A stretch of DNA of 62,879 nucleotides from a virus (Duplodnaviria > Caudoviricetes): IMG/VR virus record IMGVR_UViG_3300031965_000026, positions 1-62,879 of that record. One strand, given 5' to 3'. Under the pieces are notes generated by a model. The model saw nothing but the letters and a program-made list of their open reading frames with translations, did not search any database and was not told where the DNA came from. A program made the translations under genes and the position numbers. Below, in pieces: positions 2,594-14,233 of the stretch; the first letter of the stretch is position 1, and each line of letters opens with the position of its first letter.

Positions 2594-2938
2594 GTGACGA
2601 AGTATCGCGCTCAGCCGATCGAGGTCGACGGGATTCGGTTCGCCTCAAGGCGTGAGGCGCGGCGGTACGAGGCGCTGAAGTTGCTCGTGCGGGCCGGCGA
2701 GATCGTGGATCTCGAGCTTCAACCGTCGTGGACGTTCGAGGTGGATGGGCGCCCGCTCGTCATCCGAAGCGCCGGCTATCCCAACGGGCGGCGCGTGCGC
2801 TACGTCGCGGACTTCGCCTACCAGGACCTGAGCGGCGGCTACGTGGTGGAGGACGCCAAGGGCATGCAAACCCCGGCCTACAAGCTCAAGCGTGCGCTGA
2901 TGGAGTTGCACCACGGGATCGTGGTGCGGGAGGTGTAG
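2594..2938 (+). CDS. DUF1064-family PD-(D/E)XK nuclease
   Basis: KYRAQPIEVDGIRFAS..E..RY, LELQP, YVADFAY, VVEDAKG, YKLK. Confidence 0.85.
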   Translation: MTKYRAQPIEVDGIRFASRREARRYEALKLLVRAGEIVDLELQPSWTFEVDGRPLVIRSAGYPNGRRVRYVADFAYQDLSGGYVVEDAKGMQTPAYKLKRALMELHHGIVVREV

Positions 2939-3160
2939 CCGACGTGTTTGGGTCGCTGAGGCTTACTAGGATGCCCCAGGATCGACGATCGCCCTCGGGG
3001 TTGGGCATGGGTATGGCTAGACGGGGGATCACCCGATGAGAGGCCGGCGCGCGAAGGTGCTGCGGCACATGGCGGAGAAGCTGACCGTGGGCAAGCCCGC
3101 GGGCGTGACGCGGACCGTGTATCAGAACCTCAAGCGCCAGTAGAAGCGGAGGGCGAGAGG

Positions 3161-4696
3161 ATGAACGAGCGAAAGGGCGAGACGGACGGTGAGGCGATGT
3201 GGGTGGCGAACGAGCCCCCGGTGACGTCGTATGCGCGACAGCTGGTGGAGTCGAACCGTGCGCTGGAGCTGGCGCGGCTCGACCTCGAGGATAAGAGCCG
3301 GCAGGCGGAGCGGCTGGAGTACCAGCTGGATGAGTGCCAGGCGGCCTTGGTGCGGGTGCGCGCCCAGCGCGACCTCGTGCGTCAGTTGGCCGAGGCGCTC
3401 GTGAGCGTCCTGCGGCTGGGGGAGAGCCGGTGACAGGACTGTGCATCCATGAACACGCATGAATCGACCTACCTCTGCATGGTTTCAGGCCGGCGCTACC
3501 GGCTGGTGGGGCTGCGGGGCTCAGGCCCGGGGCGCTATCGCCAGTACGAGGACGGCGAGCACGAGCCGTTGGAGATCGTGAAGCGCGATCTCGAGCGTGA
3601 CGCCCAGTGGCAGCGCAAGGTGGGGTACGCGTGACGCCCTACGCTGTCGGGCGCGACGACGACGAGGCCGCGTGCCGGGCTGCCGGCTGTGCCTGCCGCG
3701 AGTCGATGCGCCGCTCGGTCTACCTCGGCTGGGCGGCCGAGCTCGGCGCAGAGCAGGCGGTGCAGCTCGTGTTGCCGCCGGAGGACCAGGGCACGGAGCG
3801 GGTGCAGTACGCGAGGCCGAGAGCGCGCTGGCGGCTGTGGTGGATGGCGGGGTGGGAGACGGGAGGAGGCGACGATGCACGTTGAGCGACTGGAGACCGA
3901 GATCAACGCCGCGCTCGACCGGGCGCGGGGGGCGGAGGGCCGACGAGAGGAGGAGGCATGAGCAAGCTGACGGAGGCGGACCTGCACGAGATCTCGCGAG
4001 CGTTGTGGTTGTCTGACTTGAACGGACGCAAACGCGATCGGATCGAGTTGGAGTTACGCCAGGCGGTACAAGCCGCCGGCATCTACGCCGAGCCCAAGCC
4101 CACCCCCGCCCCCGTCGTCTGGCGGGAGATGTGCGGGCGGTGTAGGTGGTGGGAGAGCAGGCTGACAAACTCACAAGGCAGCTATGTGCAGGCATGGCCG
4201 TGTGCCAGGCACAAAGATTGGCACCATGCCTGGGACTGGTGCTCCCGCTACGAGGCGCGGTCGTGAGCGCCGTCCGCGTCCTCTGCCCAGTCCTCGGCGC
4301 GTGCTTTGCCGTTGTCGCTGTGGCGAGCAATGTCGCTGGCGACAACGCCCTTGCCGCTTGGTGGGCGGGCATCGCCGCGATGTGGGCCGCGCTGGCGGCG
4401 TTTCAGGCGTGGTACATGGAGCGCTCGCTGTGACCCTCACCTGCACCTGCCGCGCCTGCGGCTGCACCTGGACGATCCCGATGCGCGGAGGCGCGCTGCC
4501 GCTCTATTGCGCACCCTGCCGGCGAGAACGAGGGCGCGCCCGCTACCGGCGTCGCCGGCGTCGCAAGCGCGCCGTGCGCCCGACCGACTGGCCGCTCGAC
4601 CGCTGCGGACACGACGTGCGGGTGGACACGTGGTCGGCTCTCAGCCGCGTGCGGTGCCGGGAGTGCGGCGTGACGGAGCTGAGGGGAGGAGCCTGA
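3161..4696 (+). other. Run of small, translationally coupled hypothetical genes (3161-3433, 3449-3634, 3631-3885, 3958-4266, 4263-4433, 4430-4696)
   Basis: GTGA/ATGA overlaps and RBSs; nin-like position before the Q-like gene. Confidence 0.55.
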
Positions 4697-5365: not shown

Positions 5366-5782
5366 ATGCTGCATGCTCGCAACACCGCGTTGCTGGCAAG
5401 CGTGCGTGCGCATGAGGGCTATCGTCTCCACGCGTACCGCGACAGCGTCGGCGTGCTCACCATCGGCTACGGCTACAACGTCGAGAACGGCATGCCCCGG
5501 CCGCTCGCGGAGCTTGTCATGCGCTGGTACGTCGAGCAGGCGCTGGAGTTCCTTGCAACTTACAGCACCTGGTTCCCGCGCCTGAGTGAGAACCGCCAGC
5601 GAGCGCTCACGGAGATGATCTACCAGCTCGGGGCCAACCGCTTCGTCCGGTTCGTGCGCATGCTCCGCGCCCTCGAGGCCGGCGATTTCGATCAGGCCGC
5701 GGCCGAGATGATGACTTCCAAATGGGCCGAACAAACACCGACGAGGGCAATGCATTGTGCGCAGCTGATGCGAGAGGGTTGA
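5366..5782 (+). CDS. Endolysin, GH24/T4-like lysozyme
   Basis: HEGYRLHAYRDSVGVLTIGYGYN catalytic E/D/T motif; SKWAEQTPTRA. Confidence 0.92.
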   Translation: MLHARNTALLASVRAHEGYRLHAYRDSVGVLTIGYGYNVENGMPRPLAELVMRWYVEQALEFLATYSTWFPRLSENRQRALTEMIYQLGANRFVRFVRMLRALEAGDFDQAAAEMMTSKWAEQTPTRAMHCAQLMREG

Positions 5783-6300
5783 CGCCCATTCCTGGCTACG
5801 AGGGCCTGTATTCGGTCACCCGCGATGGTCGCGTTTGGAGCCATCCGAAGCCCTTGAGCGGCGCGCTTGAAGGTCGCGGCGCGACCCGTGGGAAATGGCT
5901 AACCCTGATTTATCAGCGAGGCTATCGCGTCGTTAGGTTGGCCAATGATGGTGTGCACCGTAACGAGTCAGTCCATCGGTTGGTTGCTCTGGCGTTCATT
6001 GCCCGCCCTCATGGTGCGGTTTCTGTCAATCATCTCAACGGGAAGAAGAGCGACAACCGCCCAGAAAATCTCGAGTGGTGCACGCAGGCTGACAACAACC
6101 GCCACGCATGGCGGACAGGCTTGATGCGCCCAGTTCGCGGGCTAAGTGAAATGCAGGCACGCATCTGTCGGCGGCTGGTCGGTCGCCTCACCAGCCAGGA
6201 GCTCGGGCGCATCTTCGGTTGCGGCTCCAGCACGGTCAACCGCGCAATTCACGGTGTCGGCGGCTATGCCACAAGCGCGCCGAGCACTGCGCGCGGCTGA
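5779..6300 (+). CDS. NUMOD4-HNH homing endonuclease
   Basis: PIPGYEGLYSVTRDGRVWS; VHRLVALAF; VNHLNGKKSDNRPENLEW. Confidence 0.9.
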   Translation: MTPIPGYEGLYSVTRDGRVWSHPKPLSGALEGRGATRGKWLTLIYQRGYRVVRLANDGVHRNESVHRLVALAFIARPHGAVSVNHLNGKKSDNRPENLEWCTQADNNRHAWRTGLMRPVRGLSEMQARICRRLVGRLTSQELGRIFGCGSSTVNRAIHGVGGYATSAPSTARG

Positions 6301-10567: not shown

Positions 10568-12913
10568 GTGTGGGATCTGCACTACCGGGCGAGCCGTACG
10601 CTCGCGCAGTTCCACGTATGCGACGACTTCGTACGCGGCGTGGTCGGACCCGTCGGCTCGGGCAAGTCCGTCGGGTGCGTGATCGAGGTGGTCGCGCGGT
10701 GCGTGCGTCAGGCACCGCAGGCAGACGGCGTGCGGCGCTCGCGCTGGGGCGTTATCCGGCAGACCTTCCCCGAACTGAAAACGACGACGATTGCCACCTG
10801 GCAGGACTGGGTGCCGGATCATATCTGCCGCCTGAAGTTCGACTCGCCGATCTCCGGGCGCCTGCACTTTCCGCTGCCCGACGGGACGACGGTGGACGCG
10901 GAGATCTTGTTCCTCGCGATCGACATCCCGGCGGACGTGAAGAAGCTGCTCTCGCTCGAGCTCACCGGGATCTGGATCAACGAGGCCCGGGAGGCACCCA
11001 GAGCCGTCCTGGACATGGCTCAGGCGCGGGTCGGGCGCTACCCCGCGAAGCGCGACGGCGGCTGTACCTGGCGAGGCGTGATAGCCGACACCAACCCCCC
11101 GGATGTCGATCACTGGTGGTACCGGCTCTTCGTCGAGGAGCGCCCCGAGGGGTGGTCCTGCTTCCATCAGCCGGGCGGGCTCAGCCCGCAGGCCGAGAAC
11201 ATCGAGAACCTGGACGAGGGCTATTACCAGCGGATCTCAGGGGGCAAGGACGAGGAGTGGATCCGGGTCTATGTGCACGGCGAGTACGGGTACATCGCCG
11301 ACGGCAAGCCGGTCTACCCCGAGTTCAAGATGGCGATGCACGTGGCCAGAGGGCCGCTCGAGCCGCATCCGAAGCTACCGGTCGGGATTGGCATCGACTT
11401 CGGATTGACGCCGGCGGCGGTCTTCGGACAGCGGGGGATCACCGGCCGGTGGCAGTGGCTGCGTGAGCTGGTGACCGAGGACATGGGCGCGGTGCGCTTC
11501 GCAGAGCTGCTCTCCGCCGAGGTGCAGCGGCACTACAGCGGATTCGAGCTGACGTTCTGGGGCGATCCGGCCGGGGACCAGCGAGCGCAGACCGACGAGG
11601 TGACGCCGTTTCAGATCTTGCGCGCGAGGGGGATCCCGGCGCGCCCGGCGCCGACCAATGACTTCGTGCTGCGCCGGGAGGCGGTCGCGGTGCCGCTCAC
11701 GCGGCTCATCGACGGGGAGCCGGGGCTCATCCTCGATCCCCGCATGACGACGACCGTCAAGGGCATGTCCGGCGGCTACAGCTACCGGCGCCTCCAGGTG
11801 CCGGGTGAGGAGCGCTACCAGGACAAGCCCAACAAGAACCGTTTCAGTCATTGTTGCTTTGTGGCGGGCACCGCGGTGTCGACGGAAACGGGTCGTTGCC
11901 CAATCGAGGCCGTGCGGGTGGGGGATCGCGCATGGACGCCGAGCGGCTTGCGCACGGTGACCGCGGTTATGTGTCGAGATGCCAGATCATTGCTCCGTAT
12001 ATCTGTCTCCAACGGTGATATCATCGTCTGCACGCCCGAGCATCCGTTCGCGGCGCCCGGAGGAAGGTTCATCCCGGCAGGCCAGCTTCAGCCTGGCGAC
12101 CGCCTGGTGACCGAAGGAGAAGCATGGGCCGTCCAGCCGTTCATCCGATCCAGACTATCGGAGGCATTCGGTTCTACCGGAAGCCGCCCGGCTATTACAA
12201 AGCCGACCATCGAGAGCACGGCGGCAAATACGCGCACCGCCATCAGTGGGAACTGCACTTCGGGCCTATTCCGGAGGGTATGCATGTTCACCACCGCAAC
12301 GGCGATCGTGCGGACAACCGCATCGAGAACCTCGAGCTGGTTACGCCGGGCGAGCACAACGAGATCCACGGTCCCCCGATTTGCGCAACCGCCGAACACA
12401 TGGCGAGCATTCGCCCACTGGCTGCGGAGGCACACCGCCGGATGGCGGGCACCGAGCGCGCCAGCGACATATCCCGCCGCGGAGTGTTGGCCCGCCCCTT
12501 CGTTCAAGGAGAGTGCAAACACTGTGGCCGGGTTTTCGAGGTTCGGGCCGGATATACAAAGCGCTATTGCTCTGCGTCATGCAGGGGAATGGCCAGAAAG
12601 GCACGCGGAGATGACGACGAGGACCGCGTCTGCCGGCATTGCGGGGCAGGGTTCCGCGTCGACAAATACGCCAGAAAAGATCACTGTTCGCGCCGTTGCG
12701 CCTCTCTCTCGTGGCGCACAGGTCTACAACCTGACGGTGGATGAGGAGCACGTCTACTACGTCGAAGGCGTGCTCGTCAGCAACTGCGACGCAGCACAAT
12801 ATTTGATGGTGGGCGAGGGCGAGGGCCGGGCGTTGCTCCGCTCGGGCGCCGAGCACAAGCACCGCGGGCGGGCCCGGCACAGCGGGACGTCCGGGGCGTG
12901 GATGGGGGCGTAG
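10568..12913 (+). CDS. terL: Terminase large subunit, containing an intein
   Basis: GPVGSGKS Walker A, IWINEARE, DTNPP, GIDFG, and SHC/CDAAQY split by the intein. Confidence 0.93.
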   Translation: MWDLHYRASRTLAQFHVCDDFVRGVVGPVGSGKSVGCVIEVVARCVRQAPQADGVRRSRWGVIRQTFPELKTTTIATWQDWVPDHICRLKFDSPISGRLHFPLPDGTTVDAEILFLAIDIPADVKKLLSLELTGIWINEAREAPRAVLDMAQARVGRYPAKRDGGCTWRGVIADTNPPDVDHWWYRLFVEERPEGWSCFHQPGGLSPQAENIENLDEGYYQRISGGKDEEWIRVYVHGEYGYIADGKPVYPEFKMAMHVARGPLEPHPKLPVGIGIDFGLTPAAVFGQRGITGRWQWLRELVTEDMGAVRFAELLSAEVQRHYSGFELTFWGDPAGDQRAQTDEVTPFQILRARGIPARPAPTNDFVLRREAVAVPLTRLIDGEPGLILDPRMTTTVKGMSGGYSYRRLQVPGEERYQDKPNKNRFSHCCFVAGTAVSTETGRCPIEAVRVGDRAWTPSGLRTVTAVMCRDARSLLRISVSNGDIIVCTPEHPFAAPGGRFIPAGQLQPGDRLVTEGEAWAVQPFIRSRLSEAFGSTGSRPAITKPTIESTAANTRTAISGNCTSGLFRRVCMFTTATAIVRTTASRTSSWLRRASTTRSTVPRFAQPPNTWRAFAHWLRRHTAGWRAPSAPATYPAAECWPAPSFKESANTVAGFSRFGPDIQSAIALRHAGEWPERHAEMTTRTASAGIAGQGSASTNTPEKITVRAVAPLSRGAQVYNLTVDEEHVYYVEGVLVSNCDAAQYLMVGEGEGRALLRSGAEHKHRGRARHSGTSGAWMGA
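11855..12784 (+). mobile_element. Intein (310 aa) in TerL
   Basis: N-terminus CFVAGT..., block B CTPEHPF, C-terminus VYNLTVDEEHVYYVEGVLVSN followed by Cys+1; removal restores SHCCDAAQY. Confidence 0.9.
12124..12744 (+). CDS. HNH endonuclease nested out-of-frame within the intein
   Basis: GAAGGAG RBS; HRHQWELHFGPIPEGMHVHHRNGDRADNRIENLE; CxxC...CSxxC zinc fingers. Confidence 0.88.
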   Translation: MGRPAVHPIQTIGGIRFYRKPPGYYKADHREHGGKYAHRHQWELHFGPIPEGMHVHHRNGDRADNRIENLELVTPGEHNEIHGPPICATAEHMASIRPLAAEAHRRMAGTERASDISRRGVLARPFVQGECKHCGRVFEVRAGYTKRYCSASCRGMARKARGDDDEDRVCRHCGAGFRVDKYARKDHCSRRCASLSWRTGLQPDGG

Positions 12914-12921
12914 GAGGGCGG

Positions 12922-13248
12922 ATGGCGGAATACGATTTTTCGAAGGTCTCGCTTTCGTTGTCACTGGAGGAGTACTCCAGGCGCTATATCGAGCCGGCGA
13001 TCAAGAAAATGTCTCGCCGGGTAAGGGCGCTGGCTTGGCGAAGGCGAAGGGCGAAGGGCGCGATCGGTCGAGCGTCCAGGGCTCCCTTGACCAGAGACGA
13101 GATTGAACAGGCAGCGCGATTGCTCTACTCCTCTCCTCGGCGTAAGGGCAACCTCGCTCAGTTCGTTCAGGTCGGAGATACCGTGAACATTCGCAAGCCG
13201 GTGCACTTCGAGATCTCTGATCGGCCGGCCTCAGACAAGGGGGCATGA
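12922..13248 (+). CDS. Small protein containing two major-capsid-like segments
   Basis: GGAGG RBS; LSLEEYSRRYIEP and FVQVGDTVNIRKPVHFE match the capsid at 17565. Confidence 0.7.
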   Translation: MAEYDFSKVSLSLSLEEYSRRYIEPAIKKMSRRVRALAWRRRRAKGAIGRASRAPLTRDEIEQAARLLYSSPRRKGNLAQFVQVGDTVNIRKPVHFEISDRPASDKGA

Positions 13249-13986
13249 TCATGGCGGGTCCGCTCTTGCTGCTCGAGACGCACGAGGTGAAAGAGGCGCT
13301 CTATCACTTCGACACGCGCTTCGATCCCGAGCAGCTCTCGGGTGAGGTAATCGTGAGCCGGGACGAGGACGACGATTTCAATATCGGCCCGGTCATCTAC
13401 CGGCACACCCTCATGTTCACCCCGGTCGAGGGCGAGGCGCCGTGCGACACGTTCATGCGCCACGCGAAGCGAGTTCGACGGGAGTTCATCGCGCGACTAT
13501 GACCGCCTGCCACATCCACGTGACGTCGGCCGACGAGGAGGGCAACCATCGGGTGACGCGCCTCGAGCACGGGCCGCTCATCGGCGGCTACCCTCGGCAC
13601 CGGGAGGAGCACGTCGTGCACAAGGAGCACCTCGAGGCGCTCCTGCACCGACTGCGCACGCAGCCGAGCCCGCAGAGCCGGGTGAAGCCCTCGCCGCTCG
13701 GGCATGAGCCCTACACCGACATGTACGTGGTGCGGGTTTGAGCCCCCGCGACCTGGCAAGCGTCTCGCCCATCGGTGAGCGCGCCGACTGGTCGGCCAAG
13801 GCCGCGGCCGGAGACGCGATGCAGCGGGTCGAGCACGACCGGCCTATCGTGTGTCTCTGGATCGATGAGCAGGGCGTGATGCGCTACGCGAAGGCCAACA
13901 CGTCGGTCGCCGATCTCTGCACGATGCAAGTGTTTCTCGCGCACATGGCCACGTACGCGTGGCGAAAGGTGGAGGAGGACGACTGA
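13245..13986 (+). other. Three small coupled hypothetical genes (13245-13502, 13499-13741, 13738-13986)
   Basis: Overlapping start/stop codons; GC3 bias. Confidence 0.55.
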
Positions 13987-14033
13987 GCAACCCCGGCGCC
14001 CGTCACAAGACTGCGCCCGAGCGCAGCGACACC

Positions 14034-14060
14034 AAGGGCCCTTCGGGGCCTTTTTCGTTT
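14034..14060 (+). terminator. Intrinsic terminator
   Basis: AAGGGCCC-TTCG-GGGCCTTTTT. Confidence 0.8.
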
Positions 14061-14075
14061 CCAAAGGAGATTGCG

Positions 14076-14225
14076 ATGAAGAAGTCTGGCAAGGGCCCGA
14101 GCTACGGCAACAGCAAGCTGAACAGCCCCCCGGCCCGCCCGAAGGACAGCCGTCCGAAGATCAAGCTCCAGACGGGCACGACCACGAGCTCGATGAAGCC
14201 GGGTGTGCGTAGCCGGGGCGCGTAA
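14076..14225 (+). CDS. Small basic protein
   Basis: AAAGGAG RBS; MKKSGKGPSYG... Confidence 0.55.
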   Translation: MKKSGKGPSYGNSKLNSPPARPKDSRPKIKLQTGTTTSSMKPGVRSRGA

Positions 14226-14233
14226 GGGGCCTG

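Follow-up and report, generated by a model that had tools for sequence, protein, structure and literature searches.

The endonuclease slot of an intein is usually occupied by an endonuclease in the same reading frame; inteins that carry an HNH_3 nuclease in frame are known, and one of them has been shown to splice. A terminase large subunit gene (terL) with an intein that contains a nested, out-of-frame HNH gene was noted in 2015 in the brucellaphages Tb and Pr (Perisivirus), in the text available of that report (Virol J, PMC4422536); in the record of phage Tb (NC_019446), gp07 is terL with 'intein present' and gp08 is the nested HNH gene. A 2025 preprint (bioRxiv 10.1101/2025.01.02.630785), in its available text, describes actinophage inteins, some of them in terL, in which frame 3 contains an endonuclease VII-like gene, and suggests that the intein was invaded by a free-standing endonuclease; its survey covers PhagesDB only. 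Available text of a 2026 preprint reports an out-of-frame endonuclease in a dnaX intein and calls such cases rare. Outside inteins, a phage DNA methylase has an insertion whose third frame conceals an HNH, described as the ShiLan domain (Arsenault et al., Genes 2025, PMC11855218). The account of fractured genes places a free-standing endonuclease gene between the halves of split inteins (Dassa et al., NAR 2009, PMC2677866). Here we analyse a locus of this kind in a virus of the Caudoviricetes, IMG/VR record IMGVR_UViG_3300031965_000026, which was examined over its whole length of 62,879 bases (the window), is complete (CheckV, 100%) and has a G+C content of 67%. We consider it very probable that its terL carries, in the nuclease motif, a composite selfish element made of a class-1 mini-intein and an out-of-frame HNH_3/zinc-ribbon homing endonuclease gene. 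Because the layout is already in print, the window is a further case whose value is confirmatory; the part worth pursuing is the family-wide picture, in which one fixed offset, adapted codons, and free, mini-intein, nested and split forms occur together.

The layout is that of the published cases: an endonuclease open reading frame (ORF) lies in an intein, in another frame, and does not interrupt the frame of the host gene. The nuclease, however, belongs to another family, and homology to the nucleases of the published nested cases was not established. The brucellaphages share with the window a terL intein, a complete same-strand HNH gene in another frame and a terL frame that is open throughout. 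They differ in that their intein lies in the ATPase domain, their HNH is at offset 1 rather than offset 2, and the HNH of phage Tb is of the PF01844 type with its zinc ribbons before the HNH motif (a permuted order), whereas that of the window is HNH_3; BLASTP aligns the two proteins with an E-value of 1e-4 over 71 residues. The brucellaphage layout looks like one of independent origin. The actinophage inteins, as presented in the available preprint text, also have a same-strand endonuclease in the third frame, in the endonuclease slot, with hosts that include the terminase large subunit; their nuclease is endonuclease VII-like, whereas that of the window combines HNH_3 with two zinc ribbons, and some of the preprint's cases may belong to the HNH_3/zinc-ribbon family. 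ShiLan resembles the window in being an HNH of roughly 195 amino acids with zinc fingers in the third frame of an insertion whose host frame is open; its description, as available, gives it neither a splicing domain nor a ribosome binding site that can be recognised, whereas the window has both Hint halves and a Shine-Dalgarno-like motif. The available account of Dassa et al. is like the present family in having an independent endonuclease gene in the intein slot, its 3' end overlapping the C-terminal part by a few bases, with endonucleases that are GIY-YIG or Vsr-like rather than HNH. Unlike a fractured gene, terL of the window is one unbroken frame with a contiguous intein, although at least 10 of 80 relatives are split, as described below. 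In-frame HNH_3 inteins likewise join a Hint domain and an HNH_3 nuclease in one element, but there the HNH lies within the intein polypeptide, whereas the window has it as a gene of its own, in another frame. A search of the literature, with the supplements of the preprints outside its scope, found neither a description of an HNH_3/zinc-ribbon family at the nuclease motif of TerL nor an account of how broad such a family is.

The terL ORF of the window (10568-12913, plus strand) encodes 781 amino acids and matches the large terminase family phrog_2 (E-value 1.5e-27). Within it, an insert of 930 nucleotides (nt) or 310 amino acids (11855-12784, plus strand) has the features of a class-1 intein. 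The insert opens at ...KNRFSHC|CFVAGT, contains CTPEHPF and ends at VYNLTVDEEHVYYVEGVLVSN|CDAAQYL; Cys1, the TPEH of block B (intein residues 60-63), the VYNLTV of block F and the final VLVSN are all in place, and the terminal Asn is followed by Cys, as in class 1. The preliminary description of this DNA had named the same splicing blocks (CFVAGT, TPEHPF and VYNLTV...VSN/C) on either side of a motif-free stretch rich in Thr, Ser and Arg, and both the blocks and the stretch are present. The intein is matched by the Pfam families PT-HINT, Hint_2 and Intein_splicing, with 44.5 bits for PT-HINT against a cut-off of 27.7. Among 40 relatives, C1, H63 and N310 are invariant and T60 nearly so, and the +1 residue is Cys in 44, Ser in 10 and Thr in 1 of 55 relatives. 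The Ser in front of the terminal Asn, a position at which His is usual but not obligatory, had also been remarked on; it is indeed there, but it is a normal state in this family and no oddity, because Ser occurs in 24 of the 55 relatives (His in 26, other residues in 5).

The AlphaFold2 model of the intein separates two folded parts from what lies between them. The N-terminal splicing half (11855-12136, plus strand; residues 1-94) is modelled entirely in beta strands, with mean pLDDT (predicted local distance difference test) scores of 90-98 in 10-residue blocks over residues 1-90, and the C-terminal half (12662-12784, plus strand; residues 270-310), which holds blocks F and G, is likewise all beta with block means of 85-97 from residue 271 on; together the two parts are predicted to form a Hint fold. 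A custom hidden Markov model (HMM) of the C-terminal blocks matched the C-terminal half with an E-value of 3e-21, the window being one of its five seeds. By contrast with the pLDDT of these halves, that of the 175 residues between them (95-269; 12137-12661, plus strand), which are the HNH gene read in the terL frame, is mostly below 50; no secondary structure is predicted there, and Ala, Thr, Arg and Ser make up 53% of the residues.

The nested gene (12124-12744, plus strand; 206 amino acids) is at offset 2 (-1) to terL and encodes an HNH_3 endonuclease with two Cys4 zinc ribbons. It begins where the N-terminal splicing half ends, with its TGA stop (12742-12744) in the codons just after VYNLTV, an arrangement seen in all five loci viewed by eye. 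The complete HNH and zinc-finger ORF that had been proposed from the letters, with its own GAAGGAG (12113-12119, plus strand) and an end within block F, is thus borne out, as is the statement that both frames stay open for about 620 nt. The match to Pfam HNH_3 (PF13392) is strong (E-value 2.5e-20; 72.3 bits against a cut-off of 24.8), and that to the free-standing family phrog_15471 runs almost from end to end. All 19 columns that are invariant in 44 relatives are kept, including H56, H57, N69, H78 and seven ribbon cysteines, C192 being a nearly invariant eighth; the conserved His and Asn residues of the window copy are H56, H57, N65, N69, H78 and the nearly invariant H82. The structure model has a pLDDT of 92.1. 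Its best solved match is I-HmuI (PDB 1u3e), the intron-encoded HNH homing endonuclease of Bacillus phage SPO1, and both matches to it are weak (profile E-value 0.006; Foldseek E-value 0.012, probability 0.97). The DNA-binding modules of I-HmuI are of another kind than the two Cys4 ribbons. Foldseek of the model against the PDB gave nothing at an E-value of 0.001 or less, with generic zinc fingers ranking below I-HmuI, and Endonuclease_7 was absent among the Pfam matches at E-values up to 0.1.

The overlap recurs across relatives. A profile search of IMG/VR yielded 554 confirmed HNH relatives, of which the best 80 were analysed (loci numbered with L). In 55 of these 80 best loci the HNH, at offset 2, lies entirely within a long ORF on the same strand; 54 of the spanning ORFs match Hint or intein families and 42 a terminase family. 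In GenBank phages, tblastn of the HNH found matches under the annotated terL in four, Tetrasphaera phage TJE1, Acinetobacter phage Highwayman, Clostridium phage phiCDHM19 and Rhodobacteraceae phage LS06-2018-MD07, again at offset 2 in every one and in genomes of 30-58% G+C (phiCDHM19, 30%). Together with the window these make 60 nested loci, and 85 loci when all 80 are counted. The position of the terL frame is open in 60 of the 85 and the remaining frame in none. Custom HMMs placed a Hint start with Cys1 before the HNH in 58 of the 60 nested loci and a C-terminal block after it in 55; in all 58 that could be placed, the N-terminal Hint block is in the terL frame and not in the HNH frame.

The bases of the overlap bear the mark of the HNH frame. 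When each HNH ORF was shuffled synonymously (300 shuffles per locus), nested copies, which by definition have no stops in the terL frame, acquired 2.43, whereas the 25 loci without a spanning ORF have a mean of 8.6 stops and their shuffles 8.7; because stops are absent from the nested copies and few even after shuffling, both codon and residue choice of the nested HNH are adapted to the overlap. Ratios of nonsynonymous to synonymous substitution (dN/dS; Nei-Gojobori) in both frames, which the preliminary description had suggested as a check, were obtained for seven related nested pairs with an HNH identity of 62-95%, the window copy not being among them. They range from 0.10 to 0.34 in the HNH frame and, when the same bases are read in the terL frame, from 0.8 to 1.6, and the substitutions are concentrated at the third position of HNH codons. 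In these relatives, selection acts on the HNH frame, where it is purifying, and not on the terL-frame reading. From these ratios, the conserved residues and the predicted folds, the element is best described as a mini-intein whose linker is merely the other reading of a working gene.

The site of insertion is well defined. The N-extein (10568-11854, plus strand) covers the ATPase domain together with the greater part of the nuclease domain and ends in ...KNRFSHC. Aligned with the TerL of Burkholderia phage vB_E332, which has no intein, it shows 45% identity up to ...KNMYSH of that protein. The C-extein (12785-12913, plus strand) begins CDAAQYLMVGEGEGRALL..., with Cys as its +1 residue (CDAAQYL), and aligns with AEASQYLLVGAGEHKHL of the intein-free Burkholderia phage TerL as well as with the ...(E/D)(A/S)xQY... 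tails of most of 79 intein-free metagenomic homologues. The intein sits in the nuclease active-site motif S-H-x|C-D/E-A, and breaks this motif in an essential gene. Those homologues come from the best 80 metagenomic matches to the last 200 residues of the N-extein (identity 54-70%): 79 of the 80 have no intein and run from S-H-x-x-(E/D)-(A/S)... straight to the stop codon, and only in L139 is there an intein, which occupies the same register (SHV|CFIAGT...VSN|CEALQY) and comes with the same nested HNH. The intein in the TerL lineage of the window is thus sporadic, and Cys at the +1 position is already found in many empty alleles (SHVCEA, SHPCEA).

Empty alleles much closer to the window occur in sequencing run X2, from another soil study, in which two contigs match the flanks and each lacks exactly 930 nt. 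One joins 11829 to 12806 (976 nt skipped, 46 nt between) and the other 11845 to 12797 (951 nt skipped, 21 nt between). The insert is thus an in-frame insertion that is precisely missing from homologous genes, as is characteristic of inteins. By manual count, 12 of the 21 replacing nt differ from the window junction, against 2-4 differing letters per 52-104 nt piece in the matched flanks of that contig. The extein bases beside the intein (11830-11854 and 12785-12805) accordingly differ strongly from the intein-free X2 allele, and such a junction may reflect co-conversion of an extein patch or divergence of the target site. A further X2 record (record 6), which joins 12207 to 12318 with 22 letters on its shorter side, probably stems from the HNH of another organism and was set aside. 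In the nearest HNH relatives of the window (L013-L015 and L017) the intein lies one residue earlier (SH|C...N|C(H/G)DA), and further members of the family have it in the register HxxDA|CRY, so that, with the window position and that of the L013 type, the family uses at least three registers of one motif. The element is probably kept by selection and still mobile.

The possibility that two frames are open only through paired frameshift errors, which would have turned an ordinary intein with an in-frame HNH into the present arrangement, deserves consideration in a metagenome assembly, and such compensating errors had been named beforehand as what might undo the claim. The evidence speaks against them: 59 other loci, four of them in isolate phage genomes, have the same offset, the points at which the HNH begins and ends are conserved with respect to the intein blocks, and in the Logan assembly of run X1 the region 11700-12900 lies in a single contig with no differences, X1 possibly being the window's own source. 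As 59 further loci share the layout and a second assembly is identical, we regard an assembly error as excluded for practical purposes. Programmed -1 ribosomal frameshifting, which would yield an HNH fused to the N-extein plus the N-terminal half of the intein, is equally hard to credit. It could draw on the facts that the HNH frame is the -1 frame of terL and is open already from 12019, 105 nt before the ATG; however, only 9 of 52 nested loci, the window not among them, have a canonical slippery heptamer close to the start of the HNH, so frameshifting was rejected as a conserved feature of the family. What is conserved instead is a start. Most loci have ATG at position 1 of the HNH model, and a Shine-Dalgarno-like 4-mer (GGAG, GAGG or AGGA, 4-17 nt upstream of the HNH start) precedes it in 29 of the 52 nested loci (8 loci being omitted for a start that could not be placed or a cut contig) and in 16 of the 25 loci without a spanning ORF, compared with 209 of 2170 other ATGs (about 10%) in the same terL ORFs. 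With ATG and Shine-Dalgarno-like motifs conserved and slippery heptamers rare, internal initiation is the best inference for how the HNH is made, and the independent translation suggested for the window at the outset gains support from these start signals.

Two further explanations accept the nested gene and dispute its role. In one, the HNH serves chiefly as a helper of the terminase in DNA packaging, as do the terminase-adjacent HNH proteins of many cos phages, and its position reflects shared function rather than homing. Separate HNH genes do adjoin terminase genes in five GenBank records and several IMG/VR loci, and the idea was raised, in the available text of the 2015 brucellaphage paper (PMC4422536), for the nested HNH of those phages. 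We nevertheless think it improbable: the intein and HNH are dispensable, because they are missing from 79 of the 80 TerL homologues and from the near-identical X2 alleles, the best solved match of the nuclease is the homing nuclease I-HmuI, and an HNH between split-intein halves fits the fractured-gene pattern published for homing nucleases. In the other, the HNH of the window is an open but inactive relic that no longer homes, and the intein persists since its precise loss is rare. Decayed or shortened kin exist, among them L091 with 63 bits, L065 with 82 bits, and L004, L053 and L054, which are without the second zinc ribbon, and no close relative was found with which selection on the window copy could be measured. 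The state of that copy argues the other way, with its 19 invariant columns intact, its full length relative to phrog_15471, a pLDDT of 92, and an ATG with a Shine-Dalgarno-like motif, and we judge a relic rather less probable still than a packaging helper.

In the reading that we prefer, of a mini-intein with a homing endonuclease gene out of frame within it, the two Hint halves would be translated in the terL frame and would excise themselves after translation, rejoining TerL. Ribosomes on terL would pass through the HNH gene in the terL frame and make of it a disordered, stop-free linker of about 175 residues, which would leave together with the spliced-out intein, and other ribosomes would initiate at the internal GAAGGAG-ATG and produce the separate HNH of 206 amino acids. 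In a mixed infection, the target of this protein would be a terL allele without the intein, cut or nicked close to the empty site; the genome that has the intein would then serve as the template for repair, by which intein and HNH would be copied together. What was computed is the architecture and its conservation, the predicted folds, the selection that acts on the HNH frame of relatives, and which related terL alleles have the element and which lack it. Several points weigh on the other side. Splicing, internal initiation and translation of the HNH, the target and cleavage of the nuclease, and homing are what we infer from these results. The spacer between GAAGGAG and the ATG is short (4 nt). 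Among the sequencing runs listed as containing this DNA there was none of RNA. In the window, the terL frame stays open in 21% of the synonymous HNH shuffles, and with so many shuffles open in a GC-rich genome, the overlap could, from the window alone, be due to chance. The 55 nested loci among 80 are taken from the best of 554 and are therefore biased as a frequency. No close relative of the window HNH was found by exact peptide patterns in viral contigs, and 60 pattern matches in metagenome contigs contained no confirmed one; the best HNH identity to the window copy is about 45%.

The HNH family also occurs outside an unbroken terL. In Sphaerotilus SN1, Pseudomonas FBPa53, Exiguobacterium EauM-23 and Lactobacillus CL2 a separate HNH gene immediately follows terL, and in Acinetobacter BP10 one precedes terS; of the 25 IMG/VR loci that have no spanning ORF, five (L025, L038, L056, L072 and L086) show an intact terL with the HNH behind it. 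In L077, terL contains a contiguous mini-intein with no endonuclease, its N- and C-terminal blocks 30 nt apart, and the HNH relative is a separate gene just downstream of terL (2317-2709 and 2887-3519), an arrangement that could be a precursor state of the nested layout. At least 10 of the 80 loci have a split terL (L029, L068, L074, L076, L079, L080, L083, L084, L085 and L088), with L078 and L061 as partial cases: the upstream ORF ends in the Hint N-half, the HNH follows, and a short ORF opens with the C-half (VYNMEVE...HN|C), with stops between. These look like fractured terL genes with split inteins and the HNH between the halves, and they fit the gene-breaking model of Dassa et al. (2009).

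Because free, mini-intein, nested and split forms are found in the same HNH family, the invasion is placed in a distant ancestor: the union of HNH and intein goes back to an old ancestor of a widespread composite element and did not take place in this phage. The preliminary description had proposed that a free-standing HNH colonised a mini-intein; the separate HNH genes beside terL favour that origin, but the event is old rather than one in this phage. Whether the HNH_3/zinc-ribbon element at the TerL nuclease motif is one old, coherent family, in which the out-of-frame overlap is the stable and commonest state and no passing accident, we consider an evenly balanced question; the basis for such a reading is that 55 of the 80 best relatives are nested, always at the same offset, with codons adapted to avoid stops. 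If it is true, the family offers a complete natural series for the gain of an endonuclease by an intein and for the origin of split inteins. It is in any case natural test material for both processes, and likewise for what length of junk linker a Hint domain tolerates, which is relevant to intein engineering. A practical consequence concerns annotation: gene callers annotate the long terL ORF only, and the HNH was unannotated in all four nested GenBank phages inspected, so that a working nuclease gene may be hidden in many phage genomes.

In those four records (HQ225832, OZ038341, LK985322 and OP947163; L001-L004), terL alone is annotated and the HNH gene is missing. In phi CD119 (AY855346, L010), terL is annotated as two pieces, to the second of which the HNH match is at offset 2. 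In the window, terL is preceded by a Terminase_2 small subunit gene and followed by a P22-type portal gene; the gap of 1.3 kb between terL and the portal gene (12898-14233) holds short ORFs only, of 116 amino acids (12898-13248), 85 amino acids (13245-13502) and others. When positions 11500-13000 were compared with GenBank phages by blastn, only the N-extein was matched, in five Burkholderia phage records. Some 4 kb upstream of the terminase genes there is a second HNH_3 ORF, a free-standing one (5722-6300, plus strand; 192 amino acids; Pfam HNH_3 E-value 3.2e-9), which is only distant kin of the nested HNH (E-value 1.9e-4). Elsewhere in the family, L091 (2261-4501) has a Hint start before its Terminase_6N match, that is, an intein in the ATPase domain, and its nested HNH, with 63 bits only, may be decayed or of another type. 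The terL ORFs of L015 (3-3344) and L082 (176-3826), of 1114 and 1217 amino acids, contain a second intein upstream of the one that holds the HNH, and these second inteins carry an in-frame LAGLIDADG_3 domain.

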